A DNA stretch of 63,352 nt, counting the filler. It is 11 parts of 11 records of this genome, joined end to end, with 100 filler letters (N's around TTAATTAATTAA, not from the genome) between each part and the next. Parts side by side here need not be neighbours in the genome. Positions count along the whole stretch, not along the records: positions 30,654 to 34,819 come from SRR7504441_1316; 10 more parts are not named here. The stretch is one strand, 5' to 3'. Positions 3,200-60,147 of this stretch are shown piece after piece. Both the position numbers and the translations under genes were made by a program. Position 1 is the stretch's first letter; each line of letters opens with the position of its first letter. The notes below the pieces were generated by a model that saw only the letters and a program-made list of their open reading frames with translations, had not been told where the DNA came from and ran no database searches.

Positions 3200-3299
3200 N
3201 NNNNNNNNNNNNNNNNNNNNNNNNNNNNNNNNNNNNNNNNNNNTTAATTAATTAANNNNNNNNNNNNNNNNNNNNNNNNNNNNNNNNNNNNNNNNNNNN
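3200..3299. other. Artificial contig linker
   Basis: N44-TTAATTAATTAA-N44 (stops in all six frames). Identical linkers at 12052-12151, 19968-20067, 23962-24061, 30554-30653, 34820-34919, 40658-40757, 46610-46709, 53009-53108, 60004-60103. Confidence 0.99.
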
Positions 3300-5661: not shown

Positions 5662-8600
5662 CTACTTGGACACCTTTGTTGCTTCTCTTTGCGCTCGCCA
5701 TTCCTCGAGTTTGCGGGTTCTATCTGAACCGTCTCCCACGGAATTTCTACGGCGGGTTGCCCCCTGTGGTCGTGCTGAAGTTGGCCGGTCCTTTTTACGT
5801 GATGATGAGTCAACGTTGGCAGTACCACCTGATGTTCCCGGACGTGATGGATTTTCTGTAACATTAGGGGCTATCTTGTCGTTTGACCCTGTCTTCACCA
5901 ACTTGGTGCCTCCACGTGCAGCTAGCTCATCTGTTTCAACTTGAAGAATCTCACGATATGGGACCCCACGAACCATGAACACCTCATTTTGCTCGTGCTC
6001 CCATTCCTGGATTTTCTGCAGGAGTTCTATGCACAGTCTCTCATTCTTGCGCTTGAACAGTTTCCGCTCCTTCTCTTCTTTGAGCAGTTTCACTGACGAC
6101 CCCTTGAACCGATCAGGATTTGAAGCGGCAGCCTCAAACTCCTGAATTCTGTGTGTTAGCGATTCCCTAAATTCAATAGTCTTTAGAATTTCCCTCATTG
6201 AGTCCATCAGTCGCTGGACGCGAGCAGCTTCTTTCTGTAAAGCTTCAATCGCCTCCACAGGCTGTAATTTGTCTACATCGGCCAGGAAAGTGTCCTGTTC
6301 CACTCCTGGAGTTTTGGCTTCGAGCCACAACTCGACAAGTTTGCTCCGCACCTCACGCACTTTGAGTCGGACGCCAGCTTTAGCTTCGTCTATTGTGCGC
6401 TCGAGTTCCAGGATGGTGGCGAATCCACCCGTCTGAAGCTTCCCTTCAAGCCGGGCGCGCTGCTCTTCAGAGGGTTGCAATGCTTTCCATTGACTCTCCA
6501 GGGTCTCTTTCAGTTCTTGGGTGGCGTTTGCAACCTCCCCTGCTAAGGCCTCCAGTTCTGGCTTCCGCTCCTTGATTGCAGAAAAGCTCTGGATAGAAGG
6601 TTTCAGACTTTGCTCGAGCAGCTTGGCATCTATTGGACGCGAGATCCACTTAGTTGCACACTTGGCCTGTTTGCCAGCTGGTGGCTGAAGCTGTTCCAGC
6701 AACTTCACCACCGGCGTTGCCTCTGCTTCAAGCAGCTGGGCTGCTTGCTCGCGCAGAGTGACCACAACTTCATAGAGAGTCTTACCTTGGAGGCCTGCCT
6801 TGGTTGGGGATGCCAGGGCCGCATCGTAGTCAACAATACAGTTGACAAGATCTGTCATTTCGTCATTCAGGCTCTGCTTGTGGGCCATGTTCTTTTCCAT
6901 TTCTGTCATGACCAAGCGTACCGCATCCATGACAATCGAGTTTCGGAGCTGCTGCTGCTGCTCACCAGGTAGTCCAATTTGAGTCCACAACTCTCCGAGT
7001 ACCACCATTTGCTCCTGTGCCCATGTGCCTAGGCAATCATTGGCCTCCACTTCGTGGGCTGTGTCCATGACTTCCTTGGATGTGTCACTGCCGCCACCCA
7101 AAACCGGAGCGTCATGTGCGAGCGGTGACACCTCATTTTCCTGCAATTGAGCTAGCTCAGCCTTGAGATTATCCAGTTCCCTCTGCGTGTCGGTGAGCTG
7201 CACAGAGGCTGCTGCTAACTGATCTTCACCCTGCTCCACCAGAGCTTTCAAGTCAATGCTTTGCTGTTGATAGTAGTCGTGCCGCTCAGTCAACAGAGCT
7301 ATCTGCTCCTTCTGGCACTCCAACATTCGGGTGCTCGAGATCAGACTTCCCGCAGATTCAGTCTGATCGCTTGCAGATTCAACAGTGGACTCGGGTGGGC
7401 TGACCAAGCTTGTAGGCTTGCCCCCTACTTCACTGACTTCAGCAAGCATAACGAGCAGTCGTTCCTCATTGTCCTTTTGCATTACTGTAAGCTTTGCATC
7501 CCACTCTCGCTCTGCAAGCAGTAACCTCTGCTGAGTTGCTGCTAGCTGTTCATCTTTCATTGTCAATTCTTCATCAATTTCCAATCTTTCAGATTCCTTG
7601 ATGTTTGCTGTTGTTTCAAGTGCCTCTACCTTCTCAAACAGCGCCTGTATGGTGGCTTTGGCTTCCTCGAGCTCCTGAATAGTCTCTACAGTGTTCTCAA
7701 TTGTGTAAGTCCCTGCTTCAGCTCCAGGTCCCTGTACGGATACCATTTCTTCTTGCACGGCGATGATCCGCTCAGAGTCTAGATCAATTTGGGCATCAAG
7801 AGACTCGATTGCCTCGTCAAGGGTTGTTAGTTGAGACTGCTGAGCTTCAGATTGAACAGAATCACTTGCAACCTGGTTCGCTAACACGAGCCTTTCTTCC
7901 ATCATCTGCTCCATCTCTTTGACCTTCTCCTCTCTGCGTTCAAGATCTTCCTGTAATCTGGTGTTCACCTCCTTGATCTCTGCTGATTTCGCAAGCTCTT
8001 TCTCCACCCATCGCCTCTGCTTTGACAAGGAGAGTTCTTTATCGAGCATTTCTTGCTGTCCTGCAGCAAGTGCCATCTTTGAATCTACCACTTCCTGAGT
8101 CTTGCGCTTTAGCATTGCATCTTGACGTTTCGTCTTGCTCTGAAGGGCCATGGTTGCTTTCTTTGCTTCGTTATTCTTCTTGACCAGCTCTTTCTTTTCT
8201 GCTGCCCACTGTTCCCTCCGGAGTTTAAACCGCTCTGCCTCGTCTTTCATCCTTTTGGATAGCGCTTCTTTCTGACCTCTCAAGCTATCCAACTCCTGTT
8301 TCAGCTTTTTAAGCTGACCCTCTGATTGTTCTCGCACTCGTAATAGCCTAGCTTGGTCTCGCTGTTTTTTCTTTGTATGTGCTAGCTCCTGATTCAGCGC
8401 CTTCAACTTTCCTTCCAGCTCACCTTTGGACTTGCCTGGGGCAGGCTTAGGAACACTCTGGCCCTCAGCTGGCTTTTCCTCGAGGCGCGAAATCTCTGTC
8501 AGGAGACTTGCCTTGTCACTCTCAAGATTGTTTGTCACTTTTTGCAGTTCCGTCATTTTGAGATCATATTTCTGCTTCATTGCAACAAAAGCTTTGTTTG

Positions 8601-10869
8601 AACGAGTCAACTGCTGCATCAATGCCGCTTTTTCTTCCAGTGAACTATTCAATTCATCCATGTCTGCCTCCCTCTGGCGCTGCTCCCTAGCAAACTCGCG
8701 TTGTTCCTCAGCGTCGTCCTCAGCAAGTGCTTCCTCTTCATCGGAGTCCAGCTGATCCTCTGGTGGCGCTGCTGGAGAATCCACCAGTGGTATGAACATC
8801 CCGTTCTCATTAGCGCTATCAGAAAGATTGGTGGTGTTCCGGAGCATGTGCATTGTATCTTCAAGAACCTGGCCCTCAGAATCAGTGGGTGAACAAACTA
8901 AACACAGACCAAATTCATATCTAGCAGAGTTAATAAAATGTGTGGGCATAAAAGGTGTGGGCATAAAAGGGGTGGGTGCATAGAAGACCAGGCAAGTAAT
9001 TACCTGATTTTCTGCACGCAGCGACGCAATTGTTTTGAGATGTGACTCGAGGACTCCCTCTATCTCATCTCCAGCAACAGTGCCCTTGGCGACGCCCACC
9101 CCCTCAGCCTTCAGCTTAAGAATTTCAGATTTGGCTTGCAAAGTTAGCAGGTCTTCGTTGGCTTGGCGCTCACTGTTGGTCAAAGCAGTAACCTGAGCAG
9201 ACAATTCCTTGTTCTGGGCCTCAAGCTTCGAACAGCGGCTTTGGAGCAAATTCCAATCACTCCCTGTCACGCCTCCGTCAGTTGCACTTCCTGCAGTCCC
9301 TTCGCCGACGGTCCGACCCTTAAGTAATTCGACTTGTAGACGCGTTATCTCTTCCTTTAGCTGTGCTATCTGTAGAGAATGGGGATCCTTATTGACGATT
9401 GGCTTATTCTGAATATTTCGGGCCCTATTCGCATATTTGAGCGTGTTTAGGCTCTCATCAAAGTTTGAGTCAGCTGGTGAGATGCACGCAATCATCAGAG
9501 TCACAGAGTTGCCCCCCAGTGAGTCCTGCAGCAGCCTGGCACGCGCAGCCAAAGATGAATCGAATTTTCAGTCGAGATGTCTAGGCACACCGTGTGAGCT
9601 TTGAGTCTCGATAACGAACATGATCGCCTTTTCTTGCCGGATCGCCAAGCACTGCAATCACGTTTCCGAGGCAGAGTAAGCCCTGGTTGATAGCAATGCC
9701 CTCCCGAAAGCGCATACCCTCAGCTTTAGTTTTCTTAGCCCGCTCGGACCCTGCAAGGTCCACGAATCTCATCTTGGCACAGCAGAATTCGCCATCCGAC
9801 AACGATTGCTCGATTGTAATCGTGAAGACGGCGTGTGACCTGGACGAGGTAGCATTCATGTTTGTGGAGCCAGTAGTCCGGCAGAGCGAGCCCTGAAAGC
9901 CCCACATCACAAGCAGCGTCCACCAGCGGCACAGGACCTTTTCGAGCAGCTGAAGAACTTCAGCTGCAGTTTTAACCTCTTCCTCTTTGATTCCGACCAC
10001 TGTCACGCCTCCAGCTGCCCCAGGCCAATGCTCACATTCCATACGCTAGACAGTTCTCACTAGCAGGATCATCGCGCATTTGGATCGTCTTTGACTTGTC
10101 GGTAAATCCTGGGTCCAGAAGGTCATTGAAGTCTTCGTTGTAGAGCTCCAAGAACGACACAGAAACCTGCATCTGCAAGTTGGCACAAATTTGCGCAGCA
10201 TCGGCACCAGGAATTCAACGCCGTCCTTTCTCCGCTCATTCAATTGCATGAATATTGCGTGAATGCAACTGCAAGCATAAATTAATGGTGCCACAGCTGT
10301 TGACAAATACCGTGGGATAATTCCGAGGTTCTCCTCGGGCACCCCGATGCTGTTTCCACTCCCCATCGTGTAGGTCTGAGTACACACAGCAGCTCGAGGG
10401 CTGCTCTAAGGATACCAGTCGGACCTTCCCGGATCCAGTCTGCCCGTAGGCCAAGATTGTAGCGTTGAGCCCCTTGAATAAGCCGTCGAGAATCGGCAAT
10501 GAACACTCCTGACGCGGACACCGTCATGTCCGCACCGGTGGCTGGCCACACCTCACATAAACTCTTCTGGTCTGATCCCTGATCGTAGGTGTAATCATAG
10601 GTGAAGGCTTTGTCCTTCCCGATCACGACCTGGCCTCGCCTGCTCCACAACGCTGCCAGGCCAGCCACCTGTGTTTGCTCGTCAATGGTACGCACGCATT
10701 CCCGGCAACGCTCGGCTCGCTCTTTGTTCGAAAGCGGGCGGATGCGCAGTGCCTGAACCGGGTGGGCTCACTGGTGCGGGCCGGACACAGCAGCCGAATT
10801 CGATGGGAGGGGTGGGCTTGGCACCACTTTGACTTGTGAGACTGCGTCATTGGCAGCCTCGGGGTTCAT
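5662..10869 (-). CDS. Kinesin-4 family motor (KIF4/KIF21/KIF27-like) with coiled coil and C-terminal MAP65/Ase1/PRC1-like domain
   Basis: Spliced model [106 protein letters not shown]; tail [39 protein letters not shown]. Confidence 0.9.
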
Positions 10870-12051: not shown

Positions 12052-12151
12052 NNNNNNNNNNNNNNNNNNNNNNNNNNNNNNNNNNNNNNNNNNNNTTAAT
12101 TAATTAANNNNNNNNNNNNNNNNNNNNNNNNNNNNNNNNNNNNNNNNNNNN

Positions 12152-19967: not shown

Positions 19968-20067
19968 NNNNNNNNNNNNNNNNNNNNNNNNNNNNNNNNN
20001 NNNNNNNNNNNTTAATTAATTAANNNNNNNNNNNNNNNNNNNNNNNNNNNNNNNNNNNNNNNNNNNN

Positions 20068-23949: not shown

Positions 23950-24164
23950 GTGCGCCCCCGCNNNNNNNNNNNNNNNNNNNNNNNNNNNNNNNNNNNNNNN
24001 NNNNNTTAATTAATTAANNNNNNNNNNNNNNNNNNNNNNNNNNNNNNNNNNNNNNNNNNNNGGCTGTTCCGGCGGATCCTGCGGCTTCACCCGTGCGAAG
24101 TCCGACCCGAGCCGGCCGAGCTGTTTCCGTTGAGAAATAACGGCAGAATCCGTCGACCACCTTG

Positions 24165-30282: not shown

Positions 30283-30659
30283 GTTCCCCTTCCAGTCGGC
30301 GGGGTGATCACAAAAGTCCGTTGTTGGGCCATGTCCTCACTGTGCGGGCCTAGGCTGAGGGTAGCCGCCCAGCTGACCCCGCCGCTGTGCGGGTGCATCG
30401 TGGTGATCTACGGGTACTTAGCCTCGCGGCACCCGGGGATGGCCCACCCCGGGCACGATTGCGAGGCCCGGCCCGAGCCGGCCTGCTGCGCCATCCGGCC
30501 GAGTGGTCAGTGGTCCCAGGCACCCGGCGGGCAGCTAGAGTGGGCCGGGCCGGNNNNNNNNNNNNNNNNNNNNNNNNNNNNNNNNNNNNNNNNNNNNTTA
30601 ATTAATTAANNNNNNNNNNNNNNNNNNNNNNNNNNNNNNNNNNNNNNNNNNNNGCAGGG

Positions 30660-33600
30660 ATGCGACGGCTGCGGCGCTGGTGGCGGGGCGAGCCCGGAGC
30701 CGCGCCAGCCCCAAAGGAGAAGCTGAAGCAGGTCCCGCTGTACCAGCCCGACTGGTTCCCCGCCCAGCCTGCGCCGGCTGACCGCCATGCCGCAGCTCCG
30801 ACGTGCCATCGCTCCACGCGCTAGTCAGCGCCCAGGCCCAGCGCACTCCGGACAGCTGCGCGCTGGTGCACGCCCCGGAGCCGGCTGCCCAGATGCTCCC
30901 GGTGTCGTACGCGGAGCTGGAGGTCCAGTCCAACCTGCTGGCCCAGCACCTGCTCGCCCTTGAGTGCGCCCAGCCCGGCGAACCGATCGGGATCTGCTTG
31001 CCGCGCTCTTTCCTCTCCACTGTAGCGATCCTAGCCGTGATGAAGGCGCCGCTGAGGTCTGTGTGGCTGGCTGACTCTGCTGGGGGCAGCTGGCCTGTCT
31101 GTATGTGCCGTTGGACCCTAGCTACCCAGCGGGCTACAAGCGGCTCATCGTCTCAGTGGCCCAGCTTCGGCTGCTGGTCACTGCCAGTTTTGTGTGGCAA
31201 ACAGAGAGCTGGATGCAGGCACGCTGACCAGTCGGACGCGGCGGCTGAGCCGGTCGCAGGAGTTTGATATTCAGGCATTCATGGCAGATGCTGACGGTGT
31301 CTTGCTCCCACCCGATGGCCAGTACAAGCAAGGGGTCACGATTCGAGGCTCGGCGCTGGCGGTAGCCAACACGGTCACCCAGGCGTTCGAGTGCTACGTG
31401 CTCTTCACCTCGGGGAGCACTGGGCAGCCTAAAGGTCGGTGCTCGCTCTGTTTTGAGAGGAGACCTCAGCCTCAGGTGTGAGGGGCACGCACAGAGGGGC
31501 GCTCAACAGGATTAATTGGATGCTCGAATTCATCCCTTTCGTCGAGGGCGAAGTGTGCTCCCCTGACAGGCCTGCTCTAGTCGCCGGCAGGTTGGCTGCC
31601 ACAAGACTTCTCTCAACTTTGTGGACCACATCTGGGAGCTTTTTGGCCCTCTTGCAGTCGGAGTGCCAGTGGTGCTGCTCGACCAAGAGTCGAGCCGCTC
31701 GCTCACCCGCACAGTGCAGGCAGCCGACCGCGCTCTGCCGGCTGAGGGCTGGCCAGTTGCTCCGCACAATGCGGGTCTCGCGGCTCGTGATGGTGCCTTC
31801 GCTGATCCGGGCGATGCTCCAGTTGCACAGGGACCTGGCCAGCCAACTTCCCCAGCTCCGGTAGTCAAATGCCGGGCAGCCGCTGACTGTGAGTCGACAG
31901 GCACTTGAGCAGCAGCGGGGAGCCACTGCCTCGTGATTTGGCTGGAGCGCTGCAGGCCGCTGCACCAGAGCTCTTGCTGCTCAACCTTTATGGCAGCACA
32001 GAGGCGATCGGCCTGTCGGTGGGCAGGCTGACTGCAGGTGCAGGTGGCGGGGGACGTGACTTGTGGCGTTTACTCCTGGCTGGGCGAGTGTCACACAATT
32101 CGAGCCGACGGCGAGAAGGAGCAGATATGGCCAGCCACAGTGTCCATCGGGCAGCAGATCTATGGATGCGAGGCGCGACCTGGTTGTTAGCGCCCGCGTA
32201 AGGGCGGGGTAGGTACTTTTAATCAACGAGCAGATGGAGGAGATCTTCCAGGTTGGGGTGACTGGCGAGATTTGGGTGATCGGCAAGCAGAACTCACCTG
32301 GGTGGTCGGACATGTGAATGCACTCAAATCGCGGGGCAGGTACTACCGCAATATCGAGGCAACTCGGGCTGCATTTCAGCCGATCAAGGCCGCGGCCAAC
32401 CAGATGGGGTTCCGGACTGGCGATTTGGGGTGGTATGACTTGGGTAAAAACCTTCATTTTGCCGGGCGAAGAGATTGCCAGGAGCGATTGTCGCTGTGTA
32501 CACTCTGACAAGTGTGGGTGCAGGTGCAGTTGAATGGATTGAGGGTTGAGCTGCCAGAGATAGAGGTGGCGCTTCGGTCCCTTGAGATGGCGCGGGACGG
32601 TGCAGCGGCGCTGATTCAGAGCAGCGAGTGGAACTCTTGCCTGGCGGTGCTGGTGGTGTGCGAGCCGACTGCACAGCAGCGCGGCCAATGCGCCTCCAGG
32701 CAGCAGGCAGTAGCTGCAAACTTCAGCAGTCTGCCAGAAGAGGACCAGCACGACACCTGGCAGAATACATGCAGCGGATCGCAACAGTATTTGTCGGAGG
32801 GCGAGCTGAAACCAGATGCTGACATAGCAGAGGAGGTCGCGACTTGCCCAGCGGAGCCTGAGGAAGATGAATCGAATCGGTTGTTTGAGAAATCTGTCAA
32901 GCAGGCACTTGCCACAATGCTGCCCAAGCCTATGGTTCCTGCTCATGTTTTCGTTGTGTCAGCACTTCCTTTCACACCAAATGGCAAACTCGACCGCAAC
33001 GCTGTCTGTGCAGAGGCTGCAAAGCTTTTCCATGGGGAACAGTCCTACGCTTTGGCAGAGCTTCCGGCCACAGAGCTTCCGCTGACCGATACCGAGACGC
33101 AGCTGACTGAAATATGGACTCAAGTGCTGCAGATTGACCGTGTCCCAGCCACGGCCAACTTCTTCAGCCTTGGAGGCAACTCGATCTTAGCGCTGCAGAT
33201 GAGTGCTGAGATTGCGGCCAAGCTCGGCAAACCCGTCGAACTGGCCGAGATCTTCCAGTGTGGTACGGTCCGTGAACTGGCTGACATGATTGACCAAGAG
33301 GCCCGCACCATGAAACGATTCCAGCCAATCATGTGCCTGCACGAGACCCAGTCCACGCATCCGCCCCTCTTCATCGCGCCACCAGCTGGAGGCTTGGCGT
33401 TTCCAATGGTGCACCTAGTCAAGTCTCTTGCATCGGAGTGGGACAGCAGCCAGGATCGATCTGTATTTGTGTTTCAGGACCCAGCGCTGGATCAGGACAA
33501 GCCGCTTTCTGACACTCTGGTGGAGCTGGCCGACACACTATTGGACGAGTTATTCCGTGTTCAGCCTACTGGCCCATACTACCTCGCTGGCTGGTCGATG

Positions 33601-34748
33601 GGCGGACTGCTGGCATATGAGATGGCCTGCCAACTAGCTGAGAGCGGCCGGGCTGCGGAGGTTGGTCTGTTAATGTTGTTCGATCCACCAATTCCAGAGA
33701 GTTCGAGCAAATTGGGCACGGTTAGGTTCTGGAAAGGAGTTCTAGGGGATGTCAAGGACCTGCAGGACGGGCTGCACCTGCTACAGAAAGCGGAAGAGCA
33801 TGATGGCAAGCGTGGTCTGGTCCGTCGAGTTTTTGGGCTGGTCAAGGGCTCAGAACAACTCAAGGGCACGGAGCTTGGGCAGGAAGCTGCCCCGCCCGCA
33901 ATGAGGCACATGGTTCGTGTACTGCACCACCACCACAAGCTGGAAGGCGAGTACGCCCCGAGGGTGTATGAAGGACCGGTGCACATTCTCCGGCCTGTCA
34001 AGCCATTCGAACAAGACCTACGGGACGCGAACTTCTGGAGCAAATTGGTACGATTCTCCCAGGTAAATCGGTGCAAGGGCGACCACATAACTATGATGCG
34101 CTCCGAAAATACGTCAGGCCTGGCCCGTACAGTTGCGCGGCTACTGAATTCAGTTCCGGCTGATATGGATCGGGTTGAAGGCGAGGTGTTGAATCCCACT
34201 GGAAAGCGGAGATTCAGCATTGGGGTGCAGGTGTGTGCGGTGGTGACTGGTCCGCCATGTGGGGGTCCGGCTGATCATGACCGTTGGGTAGCTTTGTGCG
34301 GCAGCTGAGAGTCAAAGCTAGGGTACAGGTCTGTACAACCTGCTCAACATGCACGGATGGCTGGGGCTGTGGCGGGGGCAAGCGGACATGGTATAATATT
34401 CGTGTGATGGTACACACCAAGGCCTCATCTAAGGAGCTCTGTTGGCAAGTCAAGCGGCGGTATTCCATGCCAGTGTTTAGTTGAGTGACAACCGTGGGTA
34501 GGTACAGCCACTTTTTGAGTCTGTGCCGGATAATGAAGGAAGAGATCGGCGATCAGCTCTCAGAGACTTTCACTTGGTTTCGACCCAAGTATTGGTATGG
34601 CAACAAGACAAAGAAGGTAGTCTCAGAGCGCCTCGAGCTAATCAACTCGTTCTTTCAAGCTCTCTACCCGGTGGAGTACTCCCATCCGGTGATGCAAGCT
34701 TTTTTATCGTTCCCCCACTCAGGGATAAGTCGAACGCGCCCATTATGA
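30660..34748 (+). CDS. Monomodular NRPS-like protein A-T-TE with a probable C-terminal PX domain (about 14 introns)
   Basis: YVPLDPSYP, YVLFTSGSTGQPKG, SGEPL, NLYGSTE, FRTGDL, GRRDCQVQLNGLRVEL, PFTPNGKLDR; carrier FFSLGGNSI (Ser at 33181); TE GPYYLAGWSMGG and GDHITM; PX WQVKRRYSHF..RPK..ERLELINSFF..HPVMQAFL. Confidence 0.9.
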
Positions 34749-35046
34749 CACGCTTGAAACGATTAAAATGCATGTGTGGAATTAGTGCGTAATTGGAATC
34801 ACTTTCCTTCTGAATATTTNNNNNNNNNNNNNNNNNNNNNNNNNNNNNNNNNNNNNNNNNNNNTTAATTAATTAANNNNNNNNNNNNNNNNNNNNNNNNN
34901 NNNNNNNNNNNNNNNNNNNGAAGCCGAGTCGGGCAAATACCTCGTAGATATCCATCCGGGCTCGAGCGCCGATAGACATCTACGAGCCCGTGTTCGTGTC
35001 AGTCGGGAGCATCTGGAGCCTGGTTACGATGTGGGAGGAGTATGGC

Positions 35047-38260: not shown

Positions 38261-40438
38261 TCAAAACCGAAGCTCGCCGTCTATTATTCGCTGGCGTGTG
38301 AGCTCAGTCAGCTCTACGAAGCTTTGTTGCTGGTCATCGCGCACAAACACGCTCGAGCCCGGCTCGTGCCCGAACCCGAGCCGCATCAGCTGTCCCTTGG
38401 TGTGCTTGAGTGTGTGCGACGTAGCGAGCGCGGGTTGCACTCTAATAAACACCGGCCGCGCAAACTTGGCTAGATTGGCGTGAGTGAACTGCCAGACCAG
38501 CCCGAAGTCCACAGGTTTGTCCTCAATCGCGACTGCGCCGCACTTGCCTGCGGCGCCAGGGATTTCGACGCCAAACGCCACGCAGACAGGCGAGCCGAGC
38601 CCTCCGCTCCTGATGCAGACAGCTTCCACTTCGGCGGTCGACACGTTCTCGCCCTTCCAACGGAATGTGTCCCCCAGCCGGTCCACGAAGTAGATATAAC
38701 CTAGAAACCGGTCAGCAATCCCAACGGCCGCCCCACCGTCGTGGTCCCAGCGCAGCAGGTCACCCGACCGGAACCACGCGTCGCCCGGGCTGCGCACTCC
38801 TCGAAGCACCTATGCCCACCGGCTCCGCGCAGTCGGCCCATAAAACACCTTGGACTGGTTCTGGTCGGCTTGAGCATACCCGTCGAATCGCCGGGCTGGG
38901 TTGTTGGGGTCTATCAACCCGATCACCTCCCCAGGCTCGCCTCTCTCGGCCTCGATCAGTGTGCCGTTGGGCCGTCGGATCGGCTCAAGCGTGTCGGGGT
39001 CAACCTTTATGAACCGGACCTGGTAGATCGACTGCATCACTGCGGCCATGTACCCGACCGGTCCGAGTCGTCCGCGGTTGTTGAACAGGTTCACATTCCT
39101 GCCGCCCCACTCTCCCAACCCCTCCAAATGGCGCACCCTTCAGTCGAGCCATAGAACTCTCCAATGCAGGGCACCCCAAACCGACTCTGCCGGCCGGCTC
39201 GCCCTACGCCCGACGGCCGACCTACCTGGAACTGTGCGGCCGCGTCTGCGTGCAGCCCGTTGCCGATCGCAAGCCTCACTTGATGCGACTGGTCGGCCTC
39301 GCTCGAAGGGCTGGCGAGCAGGTACCGGCCGAGCTCGCCGATGTAGAGCACCACCGTGCAGCCGTGCTCGGCGCAGTCCGGCCAGAACTTTGTGGCTGAG
39401 AACTTCTCTCGCACCACGAGAGTGGCGCCGCGATGCCAGCACATGGAGACCTGCAGCCAGTCAGCCGCGCGACCAGCTGGGGCCCACCGCAGCCATGCCA
39501 GCCGAGCTGTGGTGCAGCGGCAGCGACGTATAGACTCGGTCCGACCGACGCAGCCCGTACAGCGAGGCAAAGGCCAGGCCCGCTGCGTAGAACCGCATGC
39601 TGGAGATCTTGGCAGCCTTTGGCAGACCGGTGGTGCCTGAGGTGTAGACATAAAACAGCTCCGAGCTGGCGACAGGCGCTGCAGGCACCGGGACCTCTGG
39701 CTGGCCGGCGATGGCGGCCGTCCAGGCGATCCACTCCACCCCAGCCGGCAGCTGGCCTGTGAGTGGCCCGTCGTGCAGGCAGAGCGTCAGGCCACTCCCA
39801 GCCGCACGCACCGCGTGCTCGAGCTGCATCCCAGCCGATGCCGGGTGAATTAGCGCCGCCACCGCCCCCGCCTTGGACAGTCCCACCCAGCTGGCCACCA
39901 GCGCCGCCGCCGACTCGATCCGCACCCCCACGCAGCCCTCCACCCCCCGGCCGACCGCCCAGTGCGCTACCCGGTTACTCAATCGATCCAGCTCGGCGTA
40001 GCTGAGCGCCCGACCGGTGCGCAGCTCATGGATTGCCACCCGCCCCGGCGCATCCCGCACGCGCGTGGCTAGCATCTGCAGCACCGGCGATTCGGCTCGG
40101 CGGGCGGCGAGCCGGGCGGCGAGCTGGACTCGGAGGAAGGGCACGCCCAGGTTGAAAGCATCCTGCCACAGCTCGCAGAGCACAAGACAGATGCCCCGGA
40201 GCGGCCAGGGCAGGCGGGCCAACCGCGGGTACCAACGGCGCAGGTAGTTGGCCCGGCGGGCACGCAGCAGCATGGTGACGCACTGGCGCGCGTAGCAGAC
40301 CGCCATGAAAAGAGCTCCGAGCAGCAGCAGTGGCAGCAGCACTAGCGTCAGCAGTGGCATCAGCGCGAGCGTCACCAGTGGCAGCAGCACCGGCATCGCT
40401 AACACCCCGCATGCGGCCACAAGCGCGAGTCGCACCAT
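38261..40438 (-). CDS. Very-long-chain acyl-CoA synthetase / fatty acid transport protein (SLC27/FATP-like)
   Basis: YVYTSGTTGLPKAA, LPLHHSSA, KFSATKFWPDC, YIGELGRYL, EFYGSTEGN, GDAWFRSGDLL, YFVDRLGDTFRWKGENVST. Confidence 0.93.
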
Positions 40439-40757
40439 GGCTCGTCTTGTGCGCCTGGTGCTGCGAGGAGGTGAACGAGGACGAGGCATAGGATTTACCG
40501 CGCCGGCGTTGGATTATTATTCAGGCGATCTCAACTTACAGTGTACTCGAGGTAGAGGCGGCGTACGGCAGTTGAGCAATCAGGGATGTTCAATACCGCG
40601 AGCCGGGCCCAGCAGCCGCTACTCGAAGCGCCACCGGCCGACCGGTCGCCGGAGACCNNNNNNNNNNNNNNNNNNNNNNNNNNNNNNNNNNNNNNNNNNN
40701 NTTAATTAATTAANNNNNNNNNNNNNNNNNNNNNNNNNNNNNNNNNNNNNNNNNNNN

Positions 40758-43700
40758 GCCCTGGGCGACGCCAACCAAGACGATGATGGTTGTAGTACCC
40801 AGGTGAGCTGCAGTAGCCGCCTGGTGGCCGATCGGGGGCAGGTGGGGGGGTGTCCCACGATGGGGGACAGCCTATCCCAGGCCGGGCCTGACCAGGTGCT
40901 CGCCCCCATCTCCAAACCCGCGCTTGGTCCACAATCGCCTCGAGCCGGGCGACGGGCAGCAGGAAGCGCTGCCCAAAACCGAAGTCACGTGGCTTCTGGA
41001 GGCTGGTTTGCCGGCGCCACGTCCAATGGCAACTGGGCCGTCTTCAGAGGCCACGATCCCAAGATGGCCGTCGGCTTGGATGGCGACGTGTGGTCAGCCC
41101 GCGGGGCCGGCAACAGGGGCCGCGACGGTGCAGGCTGGGTCCAGCTCAGAGTGGCCGGCGACGCCGTGGCGCTTGGCCTGCCGGAGACGGGATTGGGCAG
41201 CACTATGGAGGACTGGCGGCTGGCCGAGAGCAGCACCGGGGCGCTGCTGCTGGTGCAGGGGCAAGACGCGCCGGGGGGAGCGCATACTGTGGGGCCTCTC
41301 TACAGCCGGAGAGATGTGGACAGCAGCCATGGGCGGTGGCTGGGTGCAGAAGCGGGATGCCAGGCCTGCTGAGTCGTCTCGGGCTGCCAACTCGATGTCC
41401 ACTGTGTGGGCGAGCGCCGGAGCTGGCGTGCTGGGCGAGGTTGCTCTGGAGGTGGGGGACTGGGATCTTGGCGAGACCGAATCCGGAGACTTCGGGGTGC
41501 TTTATCAAGGCGAGCTGAGGCTGCTGGTGACCAAGCTGGGAGACTTGTGGAGTGCGTACCCACCAGGCTGGATCCGCAAGAGGAACGGCCAGGGACACGA
41601 TCCAGGCCAACTGGTTGCTGTCACGGATTGCGTGCTGGGGCCATGGCAGCCGTGGGACCTTTGTTCAGCCTGTTGCGGCGAGGGTGGTACTAGGAATCGC
41701 CGGCGCGAGGTGGTTGTGGAGCCTACAGGCGGCGGTGTGGTCTGCGAGCATCAATTGGAGACAGAGAGCTGCAACAGACACGTGTGTGCACCGGCCGAAC
41801 CGAGTGCGCAGTACGCCCAAGAGGATGACACTCTGCTGGCGCTTTGGCTGAGCACACGTGGGGCCGAATGGCGGCGGAAACGGTGCTGGATGACCGGAGC
41901 GAGTCACTGCGACTGGGAAGGAGTCACTTGCACACCTGCCGAGCCGGGATCCACAGGCCCAATCACAAGCTTGTCGCTTGAGCACAATAATCTCGATGGC
42001 GAAATACCCGACCTCTCTGGAGTTTCTTACCTTCAACACCTCTCAATAGCTCGGAATCCAAGAGCCAACCTAGCAGATGTGGCCACTTCCAGGTTCGACC
42101 AGCTCACTGGACTTTTCGCGTCTCCAGAGCAACTTCACCGCGCCTTTGTGCCCGATGTACAGTTCCAGGGTCCGCTGCGCAGAGTCAACAACCGAGGGGT
42201 CGCCCCGGTAGCTGCAGCTGCGAGGGTCCTACAGCAGTGGCCGGCTGGGGCCCGATGGTGGAGGATCCGCCAGCACAGCTACATGCAATGCGAAGAGCGA
42301 CTGACTCATTGTGGTGCTCCCTGGCGAATTCGCGAAGTCGTCTTCTCGACGGTGCCTGGTCCTCCAGGATGGGAGAGCACGGCTGACGGAGACGCTGCTC
42401 CTATCAGCGACCAAGGCACAGTGCCTGTAGGCTTCACTCAGTCTACGGAGGGTGCAACGAATGAGGGCTTCGAAGTCACCAACGCATTCGATAATGACGA
42501 GGCGACCTACTGGAGTTCACAGAAGTACTCACTTGGCTGGATCGGCCAACGCTTTGACGCTCCAACAGTTGTCAAGGCCGTGAAGCTCCTCACCTTTACG
42601 TCCAACAATAGTCTGTCTGACTTGCCCCGGTCCGTCATTCTGGAGCGCAGCCTCGATGGCAAAGTGTGGGAGATGGTGAAGCTCTTTGCCGAAGAGACTG
42701 ATCACGGTAACATGCGGAGCACTGGCTTCTCTCTAGCAGGTGCATCATCAGCAGGGAACCCGTTCCTCCTCGAGACAAACATCGATCTGGCCTCCCCAGG
42801 CGCGCCAGTTTACTTCCACCGATTGCAATCGGCGAGCACATCTGCCGGTGCTTTGACATGTACCAGCTCCGCAAACTGGACGGCGGGAGCATCCTCTTCG
42901 GCATCGTTCAACGCCAAATCTGGCATCAAGGGCGTCAGTTTCTCCTGTCCAGCTGATGCAGATGTTGTGGCTGGCTTGGCTTCTCAGGACACGATGGTGG
43001 GTCAAAATATGCATCAAGAGATTGGCTGGGGACTGCACTGCCTTAGCGGCCAACTGAGCATCATGGAAAACGGCGAAGAGAAAGTCGATGTTGGGGAGTA
43101 CTTTAATGCTTCAGTCCTTGAAGTGCGGCTCAACTCGGATCCTGGGGTGTTGCAGAGGACTGCCAGGTTGGTAGAGTATTACCGCGATGGCGAGCGGCTC
43201 TTTACCTCTTCTGCAGTCCCCTCACCGTCACAGGCCCTGCTTTTCAAAGCTGCTTGTAGCAACGCCGAAGCTACAATCAGTAACGTAGCTTGGCTGGGCG
43301 AAGATGTCTGGCGGTGGGCCAGTAACTGCAGCCAGGTGATCTCGTGCGATTCCCCGCCGAGGATGAGCTCTTGTGTGTGCAGAGTACAGGCTCGTGTGCT
43401 GGCGCGAACGATATGAGGCTCGATACATCCGCTGTGTTATCGCAGGTCCGATTTTTAATTACTAACCCGGCTGAGTCTGTCGCCAGGTGGTGGATAGCTG
43501 GATCAGCTTCGATCTTGGTAGTTGGAAGTCTGTCTCTGGTTTGAAAATGTTCAAGCCATACGATGCGGGTGCCGCTGGTGTGAAGGAATTTGTAGTGGAA
43601 AGGGGCGACGGGCTGGGAGCGAATCTATGGGAGTCTTCTGACGAGGACCAAGGGCAGTACATCTGGACCACATGGAGGACGGTGCGGTCCCTGCCTGATC

Positions 43701-46609: not shown

Positions 46610-46709
46610 NNNNNNNNNNNNNNNNNNNNNNNNNNNNNNNNNNNNNNNNNNNNTTAATTAATTAANNNNNNNNNNNNNNNNNNNNNNNNNNNNNNNNNNN
46701 NNNNNNNNN

Positions 46710-48240: not shown

Positions 48241-51200
48241 TCAGACTAACTTGCCTCGATGGACGACATGTCCGTCAACGAGACGAACGTGTGTCTCGAA
48301 AGCGAGCGAGCCATTCGTGGTTGTCGTGACATCAATCACGCGACTTCCGTCCATGTACCCATCGCACTGATAGCCACCGAAGCCGGAGTGACGGCCAAAG
48401 CACAGATCTATCGACCGTTCACCTAGCTGGCAGCAAACGTCATTGCAATGATCGTGCCCCACGAAAACCGCGCGCACCTCCGGCGCCGCCTCTAGCGCAG
48501 CGAAGAGGCCTGCATTATTCAGTGTTGGTGTGATACCCTCAGTCTTGACACCAAAGCACTTTCCATGCTCATACGCCTCGGAGAATTCCGGCAGCGGGAT
48601 GTGGACAAAGACAAGCGCAGGCACAACCGCACCGAATGCTGCACGCCGTGCTGCCATGGTCTGATTGAACCAGTTCACCTGTGCTGGGGCGAGCCTTTCA
48701 GCCATGCCTCCGCCGCCGGAGTCGAGGTGGACGAGTTGGAGGGCCGGCACCGAGCTGCTTGAATTGCGGCCCATCACATCAACCACATACACTGATGCCG
48801 CCGGCCAGAGCTCTGCAGGACCAAGTGCGGAGTGAGAGTTGGGCAGAGATGCGTCATGCCGCATCAGTGCAACTCGATCAGTCTTAGCGCCGGAGCTCGA
48901 TTGGTTGCCTGTCTGTGGCTCGGCGTCGTGGTTACCTAGAATCGCCGTATGCGGAATATCCTTCTCGTCCAACAGCCCAACCAGTTCATCCCAGTAGGCC
49001 GTGGCGTTGGCGTCGATGTTCAGCCCTGTCAGCTGGTCGCCTGAGAGCACAACCAGGTCCGGTTCCTCGAGGGGCAGCACAACTGAACGGAGGCCAGCAA
49101 AGGTCTCGCTATCCTGGCGAGGCCCCCATGGCACACTCTCCCCCTCGCCCATGTGAACATCGGCGATCTGCAAGATGCGGAACGACCCATCATCACGGAG
49201 GCGCAGCGGCGCGGGTGGTGACGGAGCTGAGCCAGTCAAAGTCTGCACTTGAACAGTTTGGACAGCCCCCACCCACACCCCCCCTGGTCTGAGATCCACT
49301 GCTGGTCCCGCGCTTAGCTGCAATCGGGCAGGGCTGCCGCTGTCAGCCGCCAGCCTGATGGTCATATTGTCAGTGTCGAGCTCGAGGTCAAGGACAATGC
49401 CGTTGTATTTCAGCCGGCGGAGTGCCATGGTGGACGAGCTCGGAGGAAGCACCGGCCTGAGTTGAAGTGACTCGCGCAGCACTCTGACCCCGCCATATCC
49501 GTATATGATCGCTTGGAGGAACGAGCCGGCCGAGGTGAGGTAGCCCACGTTCCCGCCCTCGTTCGGATTCTCGGAGAAGGTAAAGTACGGCTCAAAGCAA
49601 AAGTTCTGGTAGGTGGCTTTAAACTCGGTGGCGGCCAGCTTCAGCCACTTTGGGTCTTTCGAGCGAGCGGCTCTGTCGAGCGCCAGGATGCAATGCACGC
49701 CATGCTGCATGTCCGGCCAGGACTCGGTGTGCGCAGAGTAGAAGGCCAAGTCGTTGCTGGCGACCTGCTCGCTGATGTTGGCTAGCCGGTCAAACATGAG
49801 AGGAAAGTAGAGCAGTAGCGTGTCGGCCTGCTTCGTCTGGAACTTGTCATCGAACTGCATCCCAGCGTATTGCGGGTGCATCTGCCGCTGTTGATCGAAC
49901 AGCACCACCAGCCGCTCACTCACATCCTGCCAGCGCGGATCTGGTTGTAGCCCGAGAGCAGTTGCTGCCTCGATCGCAAACTGCATGGCCGAGATTGCTC
50001 CAGCATTGGTGTATGTGTTGTCATCCACACCAGCGTGGTGCTCATCCGGGCCGTACACGTTCAGGATGGACAGCGCGTGGCTTCCGTTCACGGGCGTTGT
50101 GCGAGACACGTAGAAGTCGGCCACACCGCTCGCAATGGGGTACCCGACCGCTCGGAGCCACGTTTGGTTCCGAGTGGCCCACCAGTAGTTCCGGGCTGTT
50201 GAAGCAATGTCTGCAGAGAAGTGGATCTCGTTGGTCCCCAGCGGAGAGACCCGCCCGTCGGCTGCAGTCACTTCGGCCCCCGAGGCCGCTGACTGGCACG
50301 GAAACATTGTGCCGTTGTAACCGAGCCCGGCGGCCTTGAGCCTGGCCTCCGAGATCCGGACGTGCCGGTACCGGAGCACCCCGGCCGCAAACTCGGGCCG
50401 GAAGATCGAGATGGCCGGGTAGATCCAGTAATCAACATCCCATAACATCCCGCCCCCCCAGTGCCCGAAAGCACCCTCGCTCAACGCTTCCATTCCGCCA
50501 GGGTAGCCTGTGCTCCAGGTCTCATCGGTGGCCGATATGATATTGTAAAGCGAGGCGTTCACCGCCCTGCGCACAAACGGGTCCCCGTCCAGCTCAATCA
50601 GGTTCTCACGCCAGGCCGCTCGCCAGGCGGCAGTGTGTTCTGCCAGCAGCGAGTCCGGGGCAGCTGCTGCCTCTTGTTGGATCTGGAGCGCCGCGCCCAG
50701 AGGATCGGCCGCCAGCTGCCCAGTCTGGACTGCCCCCACAAAGAACCAGCGCCCGCCGCCCTTCGGCACGGCCAGTGGGGACCGCACAGCCGTGTGGACG
50801 TACCCGATCGTGCTGAGAGGGTATCCAGGGATCTCTGGCACCCTTGTGGTGCCCAGCCGGCAGCTCAGCCCAGGCGGGCATGAGACATTGTTGGCCCAGG
50901 CCACATCCCACTCGGGTCCGCCGTTTGGGTCCGCCACCCGCTGGCTGCCGTCGGGTTGCTCCACCGTCAGCTGGACCGGCTGGGTGACCGACCCGTCCAC
51001 CCGCAGCTCCATCACCAGCAGCGGCTTCCGGGTCCGGTGAGCGTACCAGCGCTGCTCGGCCACCCCCCCGTCGAGCACGGTCCGCCGCAGATAGGTTGCG
51101 GCCTCCAGGTCCAGCGCGCACCCGCCGGACGGGCCAGCCAGCCGGATGGCCATCCCGGAGGGCACGCGGGCCAGGTGTGAGCGCTGCGAGAGCGGGGACG

Positions 51201-51486
51201 AGGCATTGCCGGCGCCGGCGGTCGGGCCGAGCCCGGTGTAGACCCCGGCCACGAAGAGGGTGCCCGAGTCGACCAGGGTGCCGACCAGCCCGTTGGCCAC
51301 CGAGGCGTGCCGGCCCCAGACCGAGGACACCCCGTGCTGGCTCACCGTGCAGTTGGGGTTCCAGAGCATGCTGCCCGCCCGCACCCGGGCCGCCCACTCC
51401 GGCGGAATCGCCGGGTCTGCCGGCACGTGGGCCACCAGCAGTGCCAGCAGAAGCGACAGTGTGGGCGACAGTGCTACCGCCCACAT
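48241..51486 (-). CDS. Secreted GH65-like glucosidase/trehalase (PGGHG/ATHL1-like) fused to a calcineurin-like metallophosphoesterase (PAP29/DCR2-like)
   Basis: One open frame; signal peptide; WDVDYWIYP, GTMFPCQS, EIHFSAD, GPDEH, KQAD, YLTSAGSFLQAIIYGYGG; then ILQIADVHMGE, SGDQ, GNHD, FVHIPLPEF, GHDHCND, GRHSGFGGY. Confidence 0.88.
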   Translation of the reverse strand: MWAVALSPTLSLLLALLVAHVPADPAIPPEWAARVRAGSMLWNPNCTVSQHGVSSVWGRHASVANGLVGTLVDSGTLFVAGVYTGLGPTAGAGNASSPLSQRSHLARVPSGMAIRLAGPSGGCALDLEAATYLRRTVLDGGVAEQRWYAHRTRKPLLVMELRVDGSVTQPVQLTVEQPDGSQRVADPNGGPEWDVAWANNVSCPPGLSCRLGTTRVPEIPGYPLSTIGYVHTAVRSPLAVPKGGGRWFFVGAVQTGQLAADPLGAALQIQQEAAAAPDSLLAEHTAAWRAAWRENLIELDGDPFVRRAVNASLYNIISATDETWSTGYPGGMEALSEGAFGHWGGGMLWDVDYWIYPAISIFRPEFAAGVLRYRHVRISEARLKAAGLGYNGTMFPCQSAASGAEVTAADGRVSPLGTNEIHFSADIASTARNYWWATRNQTWLRAVGYPIASGVADFYVSRTTPVNGSHALSILNVYGPDEHHAGVDDNTYTNAGAISAMQFAIEAATALGLQPDPRWQDVSERLVVLFDQQRQMHPQYAGMQFDDKFQTKQADTLLLYFPLMFDRLANISEQVASNDLAFYSAHTESWPDMQHGVHCILALDRAARSKDPKWLKLAATEFKATYQNFCFEPYFTFSENPNEGGNVGYLTSAGSFLQAIIYGYGGVRVLRESLQLRPVLPPSSSTMALRRLKYNGIVLDLELDTDNMTIRLAADSGSPARLQLSAGPAVDLRPGGVWVGAVQTVQVQTLTGSAPSPPAPLRLRDDGSFRILQIADVHMGEGESVPWGPRQDSETFAGLRSVVLPLEEPDLVVLSGDQLTGLNIDANATAYWDELVGLLDEKDIPHTAILGNHDAEPQTGNQSSSGAKTDRVALMRHDASLPNSHSALGPAELWPAASVYVVDVMGRNSSSSVPALQLVHLDSGGGGMAERLAPAQVNWFNQTMAARRAAFGAVVPALVFVHIPLPEFSEAYEHGKCFGVKTEGITPTLNNAGLFAALEAAPEVRAVFVGHDHCNDVCCQLGERSIDLCFGRHSGFGGYQCDGYMDGSRVIDVTTTTNGSLAFETHVRLVDGHVVHRGKLV

Positions 51487-51558
51487 CTCCAGAAGCTTCG
51501 TCGCAAGGTGCGGTAGCCTCGCCACGGCCAGTGCTACAGACGTGCCGTTGAAACTCCA

Positions 51559-52410
51559 ATGGGGCGTACTGCCTGGATGATCCTGCTGCTTCCAGCGCTT
51601 GCCGGGTGCACGTGCCTGCCATGCTGCGAGGACCCGCCGCCAGGACAGCTCTGCTGCTGTCCGCCCGCTGGCTGCCCCATCCCGCCCAGCTGCGCCCCAA
51701 CCAGCGCGGCTGGTGGCTCGGCCAACCTCACCGGCTATGCGAGGTCGTTCGTGACCGACAACAGGCTGGCTGGGGCCACCATCACGGCCGACGGTGGGGG
51801 GGCTCAGCTCAATACCACCACCGACTCTGCCGGCCGGTTCCAGCTCCAGTGGCCGGTGGGTGAGCGGGTGGAGCTATCCATCGCGGCGGAGGGTTACCAT
51901 CCGACAACCGGCGGGGCCGTGGTGGTGCCGCCGGGGGGGCTCAGCGGCCCGCACGCCGAGTATACGTTCCAGACGCCCCGGATTGCCACCTACGAGGCGC
52001 TAAAGGCCGTTTTGATCCACTGGCAGCACCACACCATAGACCCGAGCTGCTGCCACGTTGTGACCACCGTCTGCGCCGAGAACAAAACACTAGAGGACGA
52101 TCCACAGGGCGAGCCTGGCGCCACGATCCAGCTTGACCCGGCGCCAGCTGGAGCGCCACTCGCATTCTATTTTGGGATAGTTGCTGGCAAGACCAATCCA
52201 TTCGCCCGCGGGCTGACCAACACGAGCGCTGATGGCGGCGCGGCGTTCTTCAACGTGCCGGTGCGCGATGAGCCGTACACGCTGTTTGCGTACAAGCGGG
52301 GCGTGAGCTTCAGTAATGCGAGCTTTTATTGTCGGCCGGATCGGTTGGTGAACATCGCGCCGCCTCGAGGGCCGACTGTGACTAGCAGGCGTGACGACTA
52401 TCCGGTTTAA
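51559..52410 (+). CDS. Secreted protein with carboxypeptidase-regulatory-like (transthyretin-fold) domains
   Basis: Signal peptide; Cys/Pro-rich linker; LAGATIT..TTTDSAGRF; TSADGGAAFFNVP..YTL.A.K.G; intronless. Confidence 0.7.
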   Translation: MGRTAWMILLLPALAGCTCLPCCEDPPPGQLCCCPPAGCPIPPSCAPTSAAGGSANLTGYARSFVTDNRLAGATITADGGGAQLNTTTDSAGRFQLQWPVGERVELSIAAEGYHPTTGGAVVVPPGGLSGPHAEYTFQTPRIATYEALKAVLIHWQHHTIDPSCCHVVTTVCAENKTLEDDPQGEPGATIQLDPAPAGAPLAFYFGIVAGKTNPFARGLTNTSADGGAAFFNVPVRDEPYTLFAYKRGVSFSNASFYCRPDRLVNIAPPRGPTVTSRRDDYPV

Positions 52411-53008: not shown

Positions 53009-53127
53009 NNNNNNNNNNNNNNNNNNNNNNNNNNNNNNNNNNNNNNNNNNNNTTAATTAATTAANNNNNNNNNNNNNNNNNNNNNNNNNNNNNNNNNNNN
53101 NNNNNNNNCGACACAGCCGGACCGAGG

Positions 53128-60003: not shown

Positions 60004-60147
60004 NNNNNNNNNNNNNNNNNNNNNNNNNNNNNNNNNNNNNNNNNNNNTTAATTAATTAANNNNNNNNNNNNNNNNNNNNNNNNNNNNNNNNNNNNNNNNN
60101 NNNTCGTCCAAAATCCGAGTAAGAAGATAACTTCGACCTGACAGCGG

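Follow-up and report, generated by a model that had tools for sequence, protein, structure and literature searches.

The subject of this analysis is an NRPS-like gene (NRPS, non-ribosomal peptide synthetase) on the plus strand of a window of 63,352 nt, the window being the whole stretch of DNA that was analysed: 11 parts from 11 records, with 100 filler letters between one part and the next. This eukaryotic stretch is split by ten N44-TTAATTAATTAA-N44 linkers, identified in the table of N runs, into contigs of roughly 3-9 kb. The NRPS-like gene takes up the whole of one of these contigs and, because the linkers join separate contigs, genes on the adjoining ones give no linkage evidence. An adenylation (A) domain, a carrier (T) domain and a thioesterase (TE) domain follow one another in that order on one spliced polypeptide, as seen from Pfam matches, a stop-free gene model and single high-scoring segment pairs (HSPs) with relatives. 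In all likelihood, judging from the sequence, the same marine protist gene goes on to encode a C-terminal PX domain. The explanation that we favour as a whole, with a probability of roughly 70%, is a single-module non-reducing NRPS-like A-T-TE enzyme followed by a Cys-rich linker and a membrane-docking PX domain. The features of the contig are the following.

30654-34819 (4166 bp): contig SRR7504441_1316, carrying the NRPS-like gene, with N44-TTAATTAATTAA-N44 linkers at both ends
30660-30754, plus strand: tentative first exon, whose ATG lies 6 nt into the contig; putative, from enumeration by script
30785-32997, plus strand: A domain in 11 exons (Pfam AMP-binding, E 2.7e-9 on exon open reading frames; AMP-binding_C weak)
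31061-31089, 31192-31259, 31435-31475, 31553-31590 and 31714-31756, plus strand: A-domain introns 1-5, predicted
31861-31900, 32004-32043 (GC..AG), 32173-32212 (GC..AG), 32302-32339 and 32482-32523 (GA..AG), plus strand: A-domain introns 6-10, predicted
31621-31623, plus strand: Val at specificity-code position 1, from motif columns
32986-32988, plus strand: A10 Lys, from motif columns
33100-33291, plus strand: carrier (T, PP-binding) domain (PF00550, E 1.2e-14)
33181-33183, plus strand: phosphopantetheine-attachment Ser (Ser in this column in 25 of 25 aligned modules)
33364-34137, plus strand: type I TE domain (PF00975, E 3.1e-22)
33595-33597, 33682-33684 and 34084-34086, plus strand: Ser, Asp and His of the TE triad, from motif columns
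34231-34385, plus strand: Cys-rich linker between TE and PX, split by the intron 34288-34328, from the alignment with the related protein P0002
34258-34260, 34332-34334, 34341-34343 and 34368-34370, plus strand: four linker Cys residues common to P0002 (its residues 195-229), from the alignment
34288-34328, plus strand: intron of 41 nt, GT..AG, through which the TE frame passes into that of PX, with TGG on the donor side (TGG|GTAGCT...TACAG|G)
34386-34715, plus strand: PX domain (PF00787), in exons 34386-34459 and 34502-34715
34460-34501, plus strand: intron within PX, 42 nt, GT..AG, with an in-frame TGA inside
34455-34505, 34587-34589 and 34629-34631, plus strand: key PX residues, namely Arg-Arg-Tyr across the intron, Lys and helix Arg
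34746-34819, plus strand: 3' end, with the stop TGA at 34746-34748 followed by AT-rich sequence (GC 0.35) to the contig end

The spliced model comprises 13 exons and 1153 codons without a stop and is partial at the N-terminus. Its 12 introns range from 29 to 68 nt, and a G comes after the acceptor AG in 10 of them. Apart from 34288-34328, they were positioned manually, guided by the translation in three frames and by conserved motifs of the A domain. The three introns with non-GT donors (32004-32043, 32173-32212 and 32482-32523) are 40-42 nt long and lie within the A domain, and the GA-donor intron is forced, as the A8 motif sits on both its sides. Non-GT donors of the GC and GA sort have been reported for dinoflagellates. 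The tentative first exon would be linked to the A domain by a candidate 41-nt GT..AG intron (30755-30795); neither a homologue nor RNA backs this exon.

A long exon (32509-34308) carries the end of the A domain together with the PP-binding and thioesterase matches in Pfam. No condensation domain was found on the contig 30654-34819; in the exon at 30782 the AMP-binding profile begins at position 3, and there may be exons further upstream. The nearest sequence relatives found were bacterial NRPS termination modules, with 25-29% identity over A-T-TE, and the spliced model aligns with such modules in single blastp HSPs over model residues ~10-984. Motifs were compared in an alignment of 25 bacterial A-T-TE modules, taken out of 123 proteins, with one HSP running from model residue <=25 to >=820. 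Relative to these modules, the core motifs A3, A5, A7 and A8 are intact, as are the Lys of A10, the Ser of the carrier and the Ser-Asp-His of the TE, the A4-motif Asp being the exception. The present enzyme retains all three triad residues, which occupy their columns in 20/25 (Ser), 20/25 (Asp) and 23/25 (His) of the modules. When the whole stretch was searched with the spliced model by tblastn at E<=1e-3, only the gene itself was recovered, with no paralogue on the other contigs.

Downstream of the TE, the link to PX depends on the intron 34288-34328. It is 41 nt long, and nine of the other 11 introns measure 38-43 nt. A HMMER search with the PX stretch as query against 1.84 billion representative proteins returned three hits at E<=0.001 (P0002, P0003 and P0004), of which P0004, a tandem repeat without a Pfam PX match, was dropped as spurious; related PX clusters among these representatives number only two. 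The best hit, P0002 (339 aa, E 5e-22, 49% identity over the matched part), originates from EukProt and bears a TRINITY transcript name; it is therefore the open reading frame (ORF) of an assembled mRNA. This one ORF contains a weak Thioesterase match that stays under its cut-off (19.4 bits, residues 2-54) as well as a PX match at residues 248-327 (45.1 bits, E 1.5e-11), with the thioesterase remnant forming the N-terminal two thirds and PX the C-terminus.

The present gene and P0002 are collinear. In tblastn, P0002 residues 1-212 align with the TE frame at 33538-34305 and residues 206-337 with the PX frame at 34329-34739 (joint E 1.6e-51), and the change of frame between the HSPs coincides with the intron. 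P0002 is tiled by three exon pieces of the present gene with neither gap nor overlap, and the spliced model matches it in one blastp HSP (model 779-1151 on P0002 1-337, E 1e-63). There are 96 GT/GC/GA..AG joins that lead from TE into PX without a stop, and of these 34288-34328 scores best against P0002 with 191, compared with 118 and 115 for joins from a donor at 34231 and 82 for the unspliced tail.

It is that other donor, CAG|GT at 34230/34231, which a sequence-only reading of this stretch had proposed, spliced to an acceptor at 34304 or 34328. The donor does stand in phase 0 relative to the TE frame, and either acceptor gives access to the PX frame, but the donor is very probably unused. 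The donor favoured here lies 57 nt away, and the intervening 34231-34287 codes for linker conserved in P0002; both joins were rejected because conserved coding sequence would be deleted. The same donor combined with the first downstream AG (34290-34291) was also discarded, as the resulting frame meets an early stop and the same conserved stretch is removed.

The linker itself is thus read partly in the TE frame (34231-34287) and partly in the PX frame from 34329, and both halves are conserved in P0002. One of its four shared Cys residues comes after Gly-Pro-Pro, two form a Trp-x-Cys-x-x-Cys knuckle and one lies in Gly-Cys-Gly-Gly. In Pfam, P0002 has a faint zf-Sec23_Sec24 match (E 0.4). The linker might form a small knuckle that binds zinc, or else belong to the N-terminus of PX.

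Not until 34281 does the PX frame become open, and the one ATG in it (34407) falls inside the PX domain, so that a complete separate start is lacking, in agreement with the earlier statement that none is evident. GC content at third codon positions (GC3) falls smoothly along the gene, with values of 0.59-0.66 over T-TE and 0.61 over PX, and GC reaches 0.35 only past the PX stop codon, with no AT-rich spacer separating TE from PX. The idea of an A-T-TE enzyme with a C-terminal PX domain is supported by the collinearity with P0002, the 41-nt intron, the continuous GC3 and the want of a start for a complete PX domain. No longer proteins were found that match the PX exon, nor any that match P0002 residues 180-339, and a search of JGI metagenome contigs with the family alignment gave 593 pattern matches, none of which was confirmed.

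RNA was available as contigs from four marine metatranscriptome runs, belonging to four studies, which are 95-99% identical to the gene and cover parts of TE and PX. They differ from it at eight positions: seven differences are synonymous third-position changes, including both of those in the PX exons, and the eighth replaces Val with Leu. One contig of 194 nt, which has 3 mismatches and a short side of 22 nt, skips precisely 34460-34501 and so joins the exons across the GT..AG intron that the sequence-only reading had placed there. A joint between opposite strands (33533/33627), as well as loose ends and pieces of 18-21 nt, look like contig artefacts or other organisms and were not used.

The PX assignment was examined at the level of profile, residues and matches to solved domains. 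With just the last exon, PF00787 gives 16.5 bits (E 0.013), under its cut-off of 21.6 bits, and it gives 22.5 bits (E 1.6e-4) on the read-through 34305-34745 with X at the intron stop codon. AMP-binding, PP-binding, Thioesterase and PX had all been anticipated; Pfam returned the first three, and PX above its cut-off on the read-through only. The relatives score 45.1 bits (P0002) and 23.1 bits (P0003, a 72-aa PX fragment), and PX identity among the three sequences is 46-48%.

In p40phox and SNX3, phosphoinositides are contacted by the Arg and Tyr of R-R-Y-x-x-F, the Lys of PxxPxK and an Arg of the following helix. These four positions are all occupied by the expected residues in the model and in P0002, and P0003, a C-terminal fragment that spans only the Lys and helix-Arg positions, retains both. 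The PX signature recognised earlier accordingly holds for Arg-Arg-Tyr, Lys and helix Arg but not for the PxxPxK prolines, which are absent from the present copy. A profile of the three-member family matched only four sequences in the PDB at E<10, all of them KIF16B or SGK3 PX domains, which line up as expected about the Lys and helix Arg. P0002 alone gave weak matches to the PX domains of SNX14, SNX9 and SNX17, plus spurious matches to NDUFB7. We lean towards a PX domain that would work as a phosphoinositide membrane tether. Tethering to endomembranes, as proposed at the outset, is a reasonable expectation for a member of this family, while food vacuoles as the site would be speculative.

As to substrate, the A4-motif Asp column, which contacts the alpha-amino group, holds Asp in 24/25 modules and Val in the present enzyme. 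According to a study on quinone synthetases, Val at code position 1 is indicative of alpha-keto-acid activation (PMC10316625), and the TE of non-reducing NRPS-like enzymes is described in another as condensing two aromatic alpha-keto acids (PMC9047271). From the Val in place of Asp, we infer an alpha-keto or other non-amino acid substrate, with an alpha-keto acid in particular having somewhat less than an even chance. The label of a peptide or amide synthetase, given to the gene at the outset, is not supported for an enzyme with Val instead of Asp at the alpha-amino-binding position and no condensation domain found on its contig.

Under the favoured explanation, the A domain would adenylate a carboxylic acid other than an alpha-amino acid, most likely an alpha-keto acid, which would then be loaded onto the carrier's phosphopantetheine arm. 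The Ser-Asp-His TE would free the acid by hydrolysis or join two units, as the fungal A-T-TE quinone and furanone synthetases do. By binding phosphatidylinositol 3-phosphate (PI3P) or a related lipid, PX would keep the enzyme at endosomal, phagosomal or vacuolar membranes, on their cytosolic side, and the product would thus be made at the PX-bound organelle.

A number of observations weigh against this explanation. The contig 30654-34819, part of a fragmented assembly, is only 4.2 kb long, and the gene may be truncated where the contig begins. The RNA contigs of the four runs leave 34060-34436 uncovered and with it the TE-PX junction unproven for this organism, and a PX-less isoform is possible because a retained intron 34288-34328 would end the protein at TGA 34306-34308. 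In P0002, the nucleophile Ser of the TE is replaced by Gly (residues 17-21) and the catalytic His is missing (about residues 150-160); P0002 is hence a diverged paralogue or orthologue and no like-for-like copy, with a TE that is probably inactive while still joined to a well-kept linker and PX. The PX score of the present copy is marginal (22.5 against 21.6 bits), and was obtained on a read-through that still contains the intron. The PxxPxK prolines lost here are present in P0002. Lastly, the residue immediately after the code-position-1 Val is an Asp, and the substrate assignment is tentative since a one-residue alignment slip at Val-Asp could restore an amino-acid-type pocket.

Some of these observations would fit two genes rather than one, with the NRPS-like gene stopping at TGA 34306-34308, or soon past another acceptor, and the PX exons forming a separate small downstream gene. 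The gap in RNA coverage, the fact that the unspliced TE frame does run into that stop and the in-frame ATG at 34407 are all in keeping with such an arrangement. Starting at 34407 would, however, cut off the first PX strands, and the PX frame offers no ATG between 34281 and 34407; moreover, the linker is conserved on both sides of the intron in the P0002 transcript ORF, and GC3 continues from TE to PX with no AT-rich spacer. We consider two genes quite improbable. The short contig in a fragmented assembly joined by linkers, together with one predicted intron with a non-canonical GA donor, could instead point to a chimera, in which misassembly joined TE and PX, or to a decaying locus. Both the order of the parts and the linker nevertheless recur in an independent transcript, P0002, the 1153-codon model is free of stops with every catalytic motif intact, and RNA contigs from four studies agree with the gene at 95-99% identity with mostly synonymous differences, and an artefact or pseudogene appears hardly credible.

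A different objection accepts the fusion and concerns its function: the PX-like domain might bind another lipid or a protein, or be a degenerate remnant, and the enzyme would then not be tethered to endosomes. Many PX domains bind other phosphoinositides or proteins, and the marginal Pfam score of the present copy, the loss of the PxxPxK prolines and the weak matches to solved PX domains (E 0.01-0.9) are consistent with this. Against it stand the Arg-Tyr, Lys and helix Arg kept in the present copy and in P0002, with the Lys and helix Arg also kept in P0003, and the finding that neither of the two RNA variants in the PX exons changes an amino acid. Furthermore, PX is 46-48% identical among the three sequences, compared with ~29% over the TE between the window and P0002. 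A PX domain without affinity for PI3P is in our view unlikely, and the reading retained is that of an A-T-TE enzyme with a membrane-docking PX domain.

A bolder proposal, which we put forward tentatively and with the odds rather against it, is that TE, four-Cys linker and PX would constitute a conserved membrane-docking release cassette, through which some marine protists may hard-wire small-molecule assembly to PI3P-positive endosomes or phagosomes. The product would then be made at the organelle surface, or the acyl group transferred onto it. P0002, with a TE devoid of Ser and His joined to linker and PX, suggests that the cassette might also serve as a non-catalytic membrane scaffold.

The rest of the stretch consists of contigs with ordinary eukaryotic genes (DEAD-box helicase, kinesin, RabGAP, EF-hand and TSP1 proteins, glycosyl hydrolases), and Rfam and tRNA scans of the whole stretch gave no matches. 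The linkers and the further genes observed are these.

3200-3299, 12052-12151, 19968-20067, 23962-24061 and 30554-30653: N44-TTAATTAATTAA-N44 linkers, from the N-run table
34820-34919, 40658-40757, 46610-46709, 53009-53108 and 60004-60103: the remaining N44-TTAATTAATTAA-N44 linkers, from the same table
5665-9567, minus strand: 1301-aa ORF with a kinesin motor end, a KIF21A-like domain and a MAP65/ASE1 match
39094-40513, minus strand: second AMP-binding gene, recognised by Pfam in two ORF pieces (E 2.1e-22 and 4.6e-7) of a different contig
40807-43413, plus strand: 869-aa ORF in which a thrombospondin type 1 repeat occurs together with an F5/8 type C (discoidin) domain, with the look of an adhesin-type surface protein
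48244-51873, minus strand: 1210-aa ORF pairing, unusually, glycosyl hydrolase family 65 (E 5e-36) with a calcineurin-like metallophosphoesterase (E 8e-11)

The second AMP-binding gene falls below tblastn similarity to the NRPS-like gene at E<=1e-3, and the ORFs that lie downstream yielded neither a carrier nor a TE nor a PX domain.

The sites at which eukaryotic cells make their natural products are known mostly from a few fungi that use lipid-modified endosomal enzymes. If the favoured explanation is true, an enzyme with its own phosphoinositide-binding domain would represent a simple and genetically readable form of organelle-targeted secondary metabolism, and the PX domain, which can be swapped or mutated, would provide a testable handle on targeting. 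The finding points to chemistry at the endosomal or phagosomal membranes of uncultured marine protists, and targeting modules of this kind escape domain searches restricted to classical NRPS and polyketide synthase (PKS) domains. No described NRPS-PX fusion was found in the literature, as covered by titles and the beginnings of abstracts and with most subscription journals outside that coverage, and PF00787 was present in 0/120 long T-TE relatives among the matches listed (250 proteins at E<=0.001, from 8000 candidates). Both results accord with the initial remark that no described fusion of this kind was known.

Among known systems, the termination modules of EntF, AB3403 and PvdL come closest, of those solved or named, to the carrier-TE exon (E 2e-29 to 1e-25 in the PDB), on which the NCBIfam EntF model gives an E of 9.5e-30, far below the cut-off of that model. 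The bacterial termination modules differ in having condensation domains and Asp at code position 1 (24/25 aligned), and they have neither introns nor PX.

The fungal quinone and furanone synthetases (atromentin, polyporic acid) and the algal A-carrier-TE genes classed as 'Other(A)' have the same order of A, carrier and thioesterase, and no condensation domain was found in the present gene either. Val at code position 1 is shared between the quinone and furanone synthetases and the present enzyme, in which code position 2 is Asp. By sequence, the fungal A-T-TE enzymes are not the nearest relatives, the present enzyme being nearer to the bacterial termination modules. One survey reports A-carrier-TE genes across many algal genomes (PMC7073580), and the A-T-TE part is therefore an already known sort of gene. 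None of the fungal or algal A-T-TE enzymes has been described with a PX or other lipid-binding domain, whereas the present enzyme has PX.

The PX domains of KIF16B, SGK3/CISK and the sorting nexins share with the present one the PF00787 match, the Arg-Arg-Tyr, the Lys and the helix Arg. The present domain is distinguished by a conserved four-Cys linker ahead of it and by a degenerate proline-rich loop. Endosomal PX proteins are trafficking, kinase or motor proteins, whereas this PX sits on a biosynthetic enzyme of the megasynthase type.

The closest parallel in concept is the melanin PKS Alb1 of Aspergillus fumigatus, which reaches endosomes via palmitoylation, with the PX protein Mvp1 appearing there only as a control (PMC5120144). 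What Alb1 would share with the present case is the concept of a PKS/NRPS-type enzyme with neither a signal peptide nor a transmembrane segment that is located on endosomes, biosynthesis being thereby compartmentalised (PMC5120144). The anchor of Alb1 is a post-translational lipid, whereas that of the present enzyme would be a fused lipid-binding domain.

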